The notes under the pieces: generated by a model | Database searches by the model: none | Told to the model about the DNA's origin: nothing | What the model saw: the letters and a program-made list of their open reading frames with translations, nothing else | Part shown: piece by piece, positions 5,618 to 55,653 of the stretch | How the letters are laid out: every line of letters begins with the position of its first letter | How positions within the stretch are numbered: position 1 is the first letter of the stretch | Position numbers and translations under genes: made by a program | NCBI RefSeq assembly: GCF_988242995.1 | Contig: NZ_OZ547043.1 | Strand: one strand, 5' to 3' | DNA length: 64,000 bases

Positions 5618-5667
5618 TAATCTCTATGCTCCGGCTGAAGGGATGTTTTTGCCGGACACAAAGGATA

Positions 5668-53495: not shown

Positions 53496-53753
53496 ATGAA
53501 AAACGTAAAAACCCTCATCGCTGCGGCGATTTTAAGCTCCATGTCATTTGCCAGCTTTGCTGCTGTCGAAGTTCAGTCAACGCCAGAAGGCCAACAAAAA
53601 GTCGGTACTATCAGTGCTAACGCGGGGACAAATCTGGGATCGCTGGAAGAGCAGCTGGCGCAAAAAGCGGATGAGATGGGCGCAAAATCATTCCGTATTA
53701 CTTCTGTAACCGGTCCAAATACCCTCCATGGAACAGCAGTAATTTATAAATAA
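53496..53753 (+). CDS. bhsA: multiple stress resistance protein BhsA (YcfR, DUF1471)
   Basis: Track ORF 85 aa with signal peptide; matches recalled BhsA. Confidence 0.93.
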   Translation: MKNVKTLIAAAILSSMSFASFAAVEVQSTPEGQQKVGTISANAGTNLGSLEEQLAQKADEMGAKSFRITSVTGPNTLHGTAVIYK

Positions 53754-53779
53754 GCATTAACCCTCATTAATGCCTGCTA

Positions 53780-54500
53780 CTGCTGATTTTTTCCCCGCGA
53801 CATGCCGTGTCGCGGGGATTTTTGTGCACAGAAAACCCCCAGCTAGGCTGGGGGTTCCGGAAAGCTTTCAGCTTTGAGCCAGTTATTAAAACCCCTTTTG
53901 ATTTGTTAAAACACTTTGCGGTCTGGCAACTGCAAGTGTCAAACAAGAAATCAAAAGGGGGTCCCAATGGGGAACGAAAAGAGCTTAGCGCACACCCGAT
54001 GGAACTGTAAATATCACATAGTTTTTGCGCCAAAATACCGAAGACAGGTGTTCTACAGAGAGAAGCGTAGAGCAATAGGCAGTATTTTGAGAAAGCTGTG
54101 TGAGTGGAAAAGCGTACGGATTCTGGAAGCTGAATGCTGTGCAGATTATATCCATATGCTTGTGGAGATCCCGCCCAAAATGAGCGTATCCGGCTTTATG
54201 GGATATCTGAAAGGGAAAAGCAGTCTGATGCTTTACGAGCAGTTTGGTGATTTGAAATTCAAATACAGGAACAGGGAGTTCTGGTGCAGAGGGTACTACG
54301 TCGATACAGTGGGTAAGAACACGGCGAAGATACAGGATTACATAAAGCACCAGCTTGAAGAGGATAAAATGGGAGAGCAGTTATCGATTCCCTATCCGGG
54401 CAGCCCGTTTACGGGCCGTAAGTAACGAAGTTGGATGCAAATGTCAGATCGTGTGCGCCTGTTAGGGCGCGGCTGGTAAGAGAGCCTTATAGGCGCATTT
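53780..54500 (+). mobile_element. IS200-type insertion sequence (IS200/IS605 family); ends approximate (about +/-25 bp)
   Basis: Contains an IS200 TnpA ORF, a 5' hairpin with flanking T-runs (53793-53817) and an RBS-sequestering stem-loop (53893-53959); the bhsA-ldtC gap is about 790 bp against a much shorter gap recalled for K-12. Confidence 0.8.
53967..54425 (+). CDS. tnpA: IS200 transposase TnpA (HUH/Y1 single-strand transposase)
   Basis: Track ORF 53916..54425 trimmed to ATG 53967: MGNEKSLAHTRWNCKYHIVFAPKYRR... 152 aa, near-identical to recalled IS200 TnpA. Confidence 0.92.
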   Translation: MGNEKSLAHTRWNCKYHIVFAPKYRRQVFYREKRRAIGSILRKLCEWKSVRILEAECCADYIHMLVEIPPKMSVSGFMGYLKGKSSLMLYEQFGDLKFKYRNREFWCRGYYVDTVGKNTAKIQDYIKHQLEEDKMGEQLSIPYPGSPFTGRK

Positions 54501-54506
54501 GAAAAA

Positions 54507-54540
54507 CCTCCGGCTATGCCGGAGGATATTTATTTTTATC
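54507..54540. terminator. bidirectional hairpin terminator next to the ldtC 3' end (probably the native bhsA/ldtC terminator)
   Basis: CCTCCGGC-tat-GCCGGAGG hairpin 54507-54525 with an A-run before and ATATTTATTTTTA after. Confidence 0.55.
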
Positions 54541-54546
54541 CAGGAT

Positions 54547-55509
54547 TTACAGAGTTTGTGGGCTCACTTGATGACGGCGGACATCCACCGGCATCCCGGA
54601 ACGGACATCCATCACATGTTGCATCACTTCAGCGTCAGTTTGTGCTGCATCTTTAAATGATTGCATTGCGCTATTCAGCGTAATTGGCAGCAGCTGCGGA
54701 TCGTCATCAATCTTCTCTGACAGCGGCTGATGTACTTCAACCAGACGCGCACCGTTTGGTTCGGCAGAGACTTTTATCGGAGTGTTGATGATATTCACTT
54801 TGGTGCCTGGGGTGACCTGGCTAAAGAGTGTTTTGATATCGTCATCACGCAGACGAATACAGCCAGAACTTACCCGCATGCCAATGCCGAAATCGGCGTT
54901 CGTACCGTGAAGCAAATAAACACCGCCATAGGCCGCCAGACGAATCGCATGATGGCCCATTGGGTTATCCGGTCCAGCCGGAACTACCGCAGGCAACTCA
55001 ATTCCCTGTGCTTTATAACGGGCGCGGATGTTTGCCGTTGGCGTCCAGGTTGGGTTTGCACGTTTGTCTGAAACGGTGGTCACCATTGTCGGTGTCAGCG
55101 TGTCACCACCCAACTGACCAATGCCGATGGGATACACGGTTACCGAATTTTTACCCGGCGGGTAGTAATAGAGACGCAGCTCCGCAATGTTGATCACAAT
55201 GCCTTCGCGCGGCGCGTCTGGAAGTAGGGTTTGCAACGGGATCGTTAACACGCTACCCGCGCGCGGTACGTAAGGATCAACACCGGGGTTAGCCTGTAAC
55301 AGAGCGAGAAAGCCGACGTTATATTTTTTGGCGATGGCTTCCAGAGAACCACCGTCATTTTCCACCACATGAAATTTGTTTTCGCCAACCAGACGACTGC
55401 CCGCTGGCGGCAGCGGCCAGGTGTTGGCTTTTGCCGGTAGCGCCAGCGCCACGGCAGCGGCGAACGTAAAAAACGTTAGCCAGCGAGAAAAACGCGTTTT
55501 GATCATCAC
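54547..55509 (-). CDS. ldtC: L,D-transpeptidase LdtC (YcfS)
   Basis: Track ORF 54547..55512 (TTG); GTG at plus 55507-55509 gives 320 aa starting MMIKTRFSRW; start ambiguous among TTG/GTG/ATG within 3 codons. Confidence 0.9.
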   Translation of the reverse strand: MMIKTRFSRWLTFFTFAAAVALALPAKANTWPLPPAGSRLVGENKFHVVENDGGSLEAIAKKYNVGFLALLQANPGVDPYVPRAGSVLTIPLQTLLPDAPREGIVINIAELRLYYYPPGKNSVTVYPIGIGQLGGDTLTPTMVTTVSDKRANPTWTPTANIRARYKAQGIELPAVVPAGPDNPMGHHAIRLAAYGGVYLLHGTNADFGIGMRVSSGCIRLRDDDIKTLFSQVTPGTKVNIINTPIKVSAEPNGARLVEVHQPLSEKIDDDPQLLPITLNSAMQSFKDAAQTDAEVMQHVMDVRSGMPVDVRRHQVSPQTL

Positions 55510-55653
55510 CAAAAATCCATAATAAATATAAGGTTATTGTAATAAACAGATAAGCCTGAATTATGGATGGTGACAGTGTCGGATAGTGCAGGGAAGTGCA
55601 AAGAATTTGTAAATGTTGCAGATGGGGGCGCAGAAACGCCCCCAATCTAACCA

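Follow-up and report, generated by a model that had tools for sequence, protein, structure and literature searches.

An IS200C copy with a substituted HUH motif, inserted in the T-run of the bhsA terminator between bhsA and ldtC

The genes bhsA and ldtC lie 81 bp apart in the chromosome of K-12 MG1655, without any insertion sequence (IS) between them, and 793 bp separate their stop codons in the DNA analysed here, a stretch of 64,000 nucleotides from contig NZ_OZ547043.1 (the window). This raises the question of what the additional DNA is, where it begins and ends, and whether it is able to move by itself. A preliminary description of the window, which estimated the spacer at about 790 bp, had already seen in its 152-aa ORF the transposase (TnpA) of an IS200 element that K-12 lacks at this position, and both the estimate and the comparison with K-12 stand. 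Elsewhere in the window, the other Rfam matches at gathering level, a PyrC leader (5618-5667, minus strand), the rne 5'UTR element (27363-27699, minus strand) and SraB (29560-29728, plus strand), are ordinary K-12-type features, which place the window in the pyrC-rne-ndh-mfd-lolCDE region of the chromosome.

The inserted DNA is one copy of IS200C, the E. coli member of the IS200 group within the IS200/IS605 family, and carries tnpA alone. Its identity, ends, target, anatomy and a single amino acid substitution in its transposase could be read directly from comparisons, and we hold the explanation as a whole, including the probable non-autonomy of the copy, with high confidence. The 152-aa ORF matches the model PF01797 (Y1_Tnp; E 5.2e-37, 127.1 bits, cutoff 23) and the NCBIfam equivalog model NF033573 (transpos_IS200; E 9.9e-42, 142.1 bits, cutoff 55), in agreement with the initial assignment, and homologues of the protein have structures in the PDB (2EC2, 2F4F, 2A6M and 2VHG). 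No tnpB was found in the ORF list, which gives at this place the 152-aa tnpA and overlapping mechanical ORFs only, and the 64-kb window holds no second IS200 copy, the left-end hairpin motif occurring once and Rfam returning a single STnc490 match. A 169-aa ORF with a TTG start (53916-54425) was rejected as the gene: the start that agrees with PGAP and all the family models is the ATG at 53967, and the extra upstream part of the longer frame falls within the stem of the 5'UTR.

The spread of the element was followed with a query of 1,501 bp across the region, compared with 5,426 complete E. coli genomes. Full-length matches to the locus were obtained in 95 of them (~2%), where PGAP names an 'IS200/IS605-like element IS200C family transposase' (WP_000526135.1) between bhsA and ldtC; the site is thus occupied in a small part of the strains, in agreement with the strain-specific DNA originally proposed. 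The DNA identity to these same-locus copies reaches 99.6-99.7%, a value that excludes chance. The exact allele of the window at bhsA-ldtC was not found among the 5,426 complete genomes, in which the best match shows 99.7% identity with 4 mismatches. No spacer of the same 790 bp free of IS200 homology was found either, the empty sites being of about 80 bp. When any genomic position is considered, near-full-length IS200C occurs in ~1,950 of the 5,426 complete genomes, in at most 35 places per genome. The element, its insertion site and the protein described below are all already in public records, and we are dealing with an ordinary, real insertion.

The limits of the element follow from empty sites and from other copies. 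When positions 53824-54534 are taken out of the window, the remaining sequence is identical at every base to the empty site of strain 1943 (L027; GGGGA-T8-ATCCAGGATTTACAGAG), and the empty sites of K-12 and STEC388 show a T7 run in place of this T8. The alignment with K-12, a comparison already suggested in the preliminary description, breaks inside the T-run, 3' of the bhsA terminator hairpin. Moreover, 16 independent copies of IS200C have in common the stretch that starts with GTGCACAG and finishes with GGAGGATATTTATT, beyond which they diverge; other copies in complete genomes align from about 53819 to 54534-54536. The range first given for the insertion, 53780-54500, pointed to the right element but started 44 bp too early, taking in the bhsA terminator, and finished 34 bp short, cutting off the right-end hairpin. 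Since a TT stands before the left end in each of the 16 loci and the last two bases of the element are TT as well, an insertion of 711 bp with no duplication and one of 709 bp with a duplicated TT are inseparable by sequence, the former reading being the one that fits the mechanism of the family. In this regard, the early statement that terminal inverted repeats are lacking was correct, as the GTGCACAG... of one end is not repeated in inverted form by the ...ATATTTATT of the other, and the companion statement on target duplications holds in the sense that none is unambiguous, given the TT at both ends. Two of the copies carry variants of the right cleavage region: in an ENA metagenome scaffold (L011) the divergence comes directly after the right-end hairpin (CCGGAGGTTTTGATTTATCGG) and the 9-nt tail is absent, and another copy (L007) ends in ATATTTTTT in place of ATATTTATT. 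The coordinates of all the features are collected in the Table.

Table. Features of the bhsA-ldtC region of the window, with positions, strands and the data on which each one is based.
Feature	Position	Strand	Basis or remark
bhsA	53496-53753	+	PF07338; stop codon ends at 53753
bhsA intrinsic terminator, 3' end of the sRNA BhsB	53792-53823	+	hairpin 53792-53818, T5 53819-53823
IS200C insertion	53824-54534	+	711 bp added; equivalently 53822-54532, or 709 bp plus a TT duplication
Left-end subterminal hairpin	53834-53856	+	DNA fold of 10 pairs, -11.7 kcal/mol; motif once in the window
Rfam STnc490 (RF01405)	53834-53957	+	144.6 bits, gathering score 56, E 6.7e-31, full-length model
Putative art200 antisense region	53886-53975	-	placed solely by homology, following PMC4513863
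5'UTR stem burying the Shine-Dalgarno	53892-53960	+	RNA fold -40.4 kcal/mol, z -4.1
tnpA, 152-aa Y1/HUH transposase	53967-54425	+	PF01797, NF033573
Codon 61, TAT (Tyr) for CAT (His), first His of the HUH motif	54147-54149	+	alignment to the same-locus copy of EC556
Right end	54507-54534	+	hairpin 54507-54525 plus 9-nt tail ATATTTATT
Leftover TTT of the target T8 run	54535-54537	+	empty-site reconstruction
ldtC	54547-55512	-	YkuD, Ldt_C and LysM domains; stop codon 54547-54549

With nt 1 of the IS200 numbering placed at 53823/53824, the layout of the element is that of the Salmonella IS200 (707 bp; Ellis, Trussler and Haniford 2015, PMC4513863), the left-end hairpin, the Shine-Dalgarno stem and the right-end hairpin falling within 1-2 nt of the published positions. 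Nucleotides 12-34 of IS200 form a terminator that works in both directions and stops transcription entering the element (PMC4513863, Figure 1), and the position of the left-end hairpin of the window agrees with them. The stem that sequesters the Shine-Dalgarno in IS200 comprises nucleotides 69-138 (PMC4513863), a description matched by the stem of the window, in which CCCCUUUUGAUUU pairs with AAAUCAAAAGGGG. At the other extreme, the right-end hairpin was detected on both strands in a terminator scan, has a DNA fold with a z of -4.95, and belongs to an end that is conserved across copies. Both ends and the published brakes on expression (the left-end terminator hairpin, the stem hiding the Shine-Dalgarno and the art200 region) are, judged from their sequence, intact in the window copy. 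The match to STnc490 spans the left end together with the tnpA 5'UTR; RF01405 matches the tnpA-sense strand and PMC4513863 puts STnc490/art200 antisense to the tnpA 5'UTR, so that the two strands appear to disagree. The activity and regulation described for IS200 were measured on the Salmonella element and not on IS200C, and the Salmonella TnpA (IS200F type, P0005) differs from that of the window at several residues and keeps HIH.

It is in this last motif where the window copy departs from its relatives. Three SNPs inside the IS separate it from the same-locus copy of EC556, at 53915, 54147 and 54194. At 53915, where most copies have C, the T replaces a C-G pair of the 5'UTR stem by U-G, and the C at 54194 is synonymous with respect to the EC556 copy. 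The remaining change affects the only residue at which TnpA differs from the common IS200C protein, H61Y. As a result the HUH motif is not intact and reads Y61-I62-H63, with a His at its first position in the common protein and in three solved homologues; position 61 aligns without gaps with H64 of the IS608 TnpA and with the His of the Sulfolobus structures. The residues Y125 and Q129 of the class 1 Y---Q signature (described in PMC6006769) are intact and align with Y127 and Q131 of IS608. The two His of the motif are what defines the HUH superfamily and, together with Q131, bind the catalytic metal (PMC6006769), and the TnpA of IS608 is inactivated by mutation of H64, H66 or Y127 (PMC3597680), although the published inactivating mutant is H64A and not H64Y. 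Because H61 aligns with the H64 of IS608, whose mutation inactivates, the window copy probably cannot make an active transposase and would be non-autonomous, with ends that should still be usable by TnpA supplied in trans. This substitution had been missed in the preliminary description, which was also imprecise about the exact ends and the insertion point in the T-run. Compared with the common form of IS200C, the window copy has the same 711 bp with 99.6% identity, the same site as in 95 genomes, tnpA alone and subterminal hairpins without inverted repeats, and differs in the H61Y of the HUH motif and the SNPs at 53915 and 54194. By descent, size, genes, ends and RNA elements it is IS200C, a mutated copy and not a different thing.

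Elements of the IS200/IS605 family transpose as single strands by a 'peel and paste' mechanism, in which the Y1/HUH transposase binds as a dimer to the subterminal hairpins and cuts the top strand, and the single-stranded circle released in this way is then inserted 3' of a short target sequence. In the window, IS200C landed in the T-run 3' of the bhsA terminator hairpin, after TT and in the same direction as bhsA, and a further move of this copy would depend on TnpA provided in trans by an active copy at another place in the cell. The GC skew is positive on the plus strand across the whole window, which puts the top strand of the element on the lagging-strand template, the orientation preferred by the family (PMC5027513). 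The Helicobacter pylori element IS608 and ISDra2 belong to the same Y1/HUH fold family (E 2.6e-18 to 1e-15; PDB 2A6M, 2VJU, 2XM3), with alignable HUH and Y---Q motifs and subterminal hairpins, and their insertion takes place 3' of a short sequence that is not duplicated. However, both carry tnpB and have defined targets (TTAC and TTGAT), whereas for IS200C only an NNTT requirement and a nearby hairpin are seen, and the window copy has YIH instead of HIH.

The target of IS200C was analysed at 16 independent loci from public assemblies, seven chromosomal and one intron-adjacent found with the Y61 protein, and eight with the common protein. In all 16 the left end lies 6-10 nt past a GC-rich hairpin resembling an intrinsic terminator, after a T-rich stretch and always as TT|GTGCAC, and the 50 nt upstream of the left end fold with -10.9 to -26.7 kcal/mol. 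Among the loci with gene calls, a gene in the same orientation ends 40-70 bp upstream in 12 of 14, and the downstream gene is convergent in 12 of 14. An intergenic location could simply reflect which insertions do no harm and survive, but this does not account for the fixed orientation and spacing. A preprint has reported an excess of terminator-like sequences directly upstream of IS elements, with IS200/IS605 showing the strongest effect (10.1101/2025.07.22.666184), and therefore the terminator-adjacent pattern is not new. In the literature we found no explicit target rule for IS200, only these upstream-terminator statistics and an anecdotal case, the Yersinia IS1541 (an IS200 orthologue) inserted between pheL and pheA at the attenuator terminator (PMC3082878), whose position fits the pattern of IS200C. 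The target, a hairpin followed by a T-rich stretch, resembles the right end of the element, made of a hairpin and a T-rich tail of 9 nt, and directly 5' of both IS hairpins there are A-runs, which could pair with T-rich cleavage sites. Likeness and A-runs would agree with the pairing between guide and cleavage site known for IS608 (PMC3597680). A more ambitious proposal combines structure-guided targeting, where terminator hairpin plus TT mimics the right end and the A-runs act as guides, with a dead YIH haplotype that hitchhikes by trans-mobilisation or gene conversion; taken jointly, we consider it a tentative idea that is rather unlikely to hold in both its parts. If it were true, the novelty would be confined to the mechanism of targeting and to the Y61 sub-lineage.

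The place of insertion also touches the 3' ends of the two neighbouring transcripts. The bhsA terminator, with 12 pairs followed by a TTTTTGTGCA tail in the terminator scan and a DNA fold of -14.9 kcal/mol (z -5.9), coincides with the end of the K-12 ncRNA bhsB (b4832), which starts within bhsA, reaches the final T of the terminator run and corresponds to BhsB, a 3'UTR-derived sRNA confirmed by northern blot (PMC8175672). In the window, the body of the BhsB region (53726-53823, plus strand) is unchanged and its T-run is reduced to T5 from the T8 of the empty site and leads into GTGCAC, from which we infer a somewhat weaker termination of bhsA/BhsB and a shorter U-tail. Read-through from bhsA would next meet the left-end terminator of the IS, 11 nt on. 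On the minus strand, ldtC runs into the right-end hairpin 22 nt past its stop codon, and TTTTTCAAAT comes after this hairpin; together they have the canonical shape of a predicted intrinsic terminator that strains with the empty site would lack, since there ldtC runs into the bhsA hairpin and then A residues. Effects of the insertion on the termination of bhsA/BhsB or ldtC, and on the binding of BhsB to Hfq, are possible on these grounds. Two Rfam candidates at 53714-53825, anti-hemB (25 bits, gathering 49.5) and NsiR1 (21.5 bits, gathering 39), were rejected, the matched DNA being the bhsA hairpin and its T-run.

The exact Y61 protein is public (e.g., ELM1167536.1 and UniRef A0A376MVS5) and was found on 25 contigs, versus more than 1,000 for H61. 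It is encoded at seven or more distinct places in the chromosome: between rplT and pheM, downstream of a copper amine oxidase gene, between pmrD and ymgL, downstream of fadR, upstream of ldr toxin genes and at other sites on short contigs. The haplotype backgrounds of the IS that carry it are at least three. This multiplicity of loci and haplotypes could mean that the allele is still mobile. Copies identical to that of the window over the 711 bp were found at rplT-pheM (L003) and pmrD-ymgL (L005 and L008). A 55-mer centred on the Y61 SNP, unable to seed a megablast match on H61 copies, matched 141 complete E. coli genomes, in 134 cases on a plasmid and in seven at chromosomal places, and all but one of the 141 matches carry the same single mismatch. 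The three that were fetched, two plasmids and one chromosome (NZ_CP033251.1, NZ_AP026938.1 and NZ_CP050040.1; L013-L015), hold a decayed IS200 relic (~1200-1830 in locus coordinates) flanked on one side by the ltrA gene of a group II intron and on the other by a bcsZ fragment with bcsC; besides the Y61 codon, it shows W12C, A21V, D95Y and E104A and a frameshifted C-terminus. A metagenome contig (L012) shows the left flank of this relic, yet with an intact 152-aa Y61 protein. The allele of the window at bhsA-ldtC was absent among the 141 matches in complete genomes. Copies with H61, in turn, occupy rplT-pheM in 16 complete genomes and ymgL in 254, and both the ymgL and bhsA-ldtC sites are occupied in CP033884, CP027134, CP086334 and CP127316. 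These shared occupied sites point to inherited insertions, whose IS alleles differ between lineages.

The identity of the window copy to Y61 copies elsewhere, together with its three SNPs with respect to EC556, implies that the history of this site is more than one insertion plus one mutation, and the existence of H61 copies at the same sites leads either to the arrival of the Y61 haplotype by gene conversion or to a fresh insertion with help in trans. Conversion between resident IS200C copies, on a site that already held an inherited H61 copy, is a serious contender to which we give somewhat less than an even chance. It would account for the H61 copies at the same three sites (95 genomes at bhsA-ldtC besides those given above for ymgL and rplT-pheM), for the several genomes in which both bhsA-ldtC and ymgL are occupied, and for a copy that has three differences over 280 bp from that of EC556 and yet shows no difference from Y61 copies at the two remaining sites; moreover, the IS200 paralogues of one genome are as a rule identical to each other though the element is dormant (PMC5435999). 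Its weak point is the target itself, so specific that separate insertions may also have hit the same nucleotide more than once. Another rival would be a fully autonomous IS200C, in which Tyr61 is tolerated, its hydroxyl or another residue coordinating the metal, and Y61 has spread by its own transposition. The presence of the exact protein at seven or more loci and on several haplotype backgrounds, a 711-bp sequence identical to that of the window at three loci, and the integrity of both ends, Y125 and Q129 speak for such an element, but it runs against the two histidines that define HUH (PMC6006769) and the loss of IS608 TnpA activity on mutation of H64 or H66 (PMC3597680). The rarity of Y61 among contigs, the decayed relic in the complete-genome matches fetched (n=3) and the near dormancy of IS200 even with wild-type TnpA (PMC4513863, PMC5435999) add to this, and we find autonomy improbable.

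Transposition would be irrelevant if the copy were kept by a benefit to the host, through sRNAs derived from the tnpA 5'UTR, the art200 sRNA and an intrinsic terminator for ldtC. The full conservation of the 5'UTR/STnc490 region, the processing of the Salmonella tnpA 5'UTR into regulatory RNAs (PMC5435999) and the minus-strand hairpin behind ldtC, where empty sites have a hairpin and then A residues, are in line with this idea. Nevertheless, an insertion present in only 95 of 5,426 genomes is not needed at bhsA-ldtC, and the regulatory roles of IS200 RNAs were shown in Salmonella and not in E. coli, all of which leaves host benefit with little probability as the reason for its maintenance.

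For annotation purposes, the DNA between bhsA and ldtC is a routine strain-specific IS insertion, which could subtly alter the 3' ends of bhsA, with its Hfq-associated sRNA BhsB, and of ldtC. As a natural mutant of the HUH motif, the window copy offers a ready test of mobilisation in trans versus homogenisation by gene conversion. In the same line, the uniform context of hairpin plus TT found around IS200C is a clean dataset for the target rule of IS200, which is less defined than those of IS608 and ISDra2.
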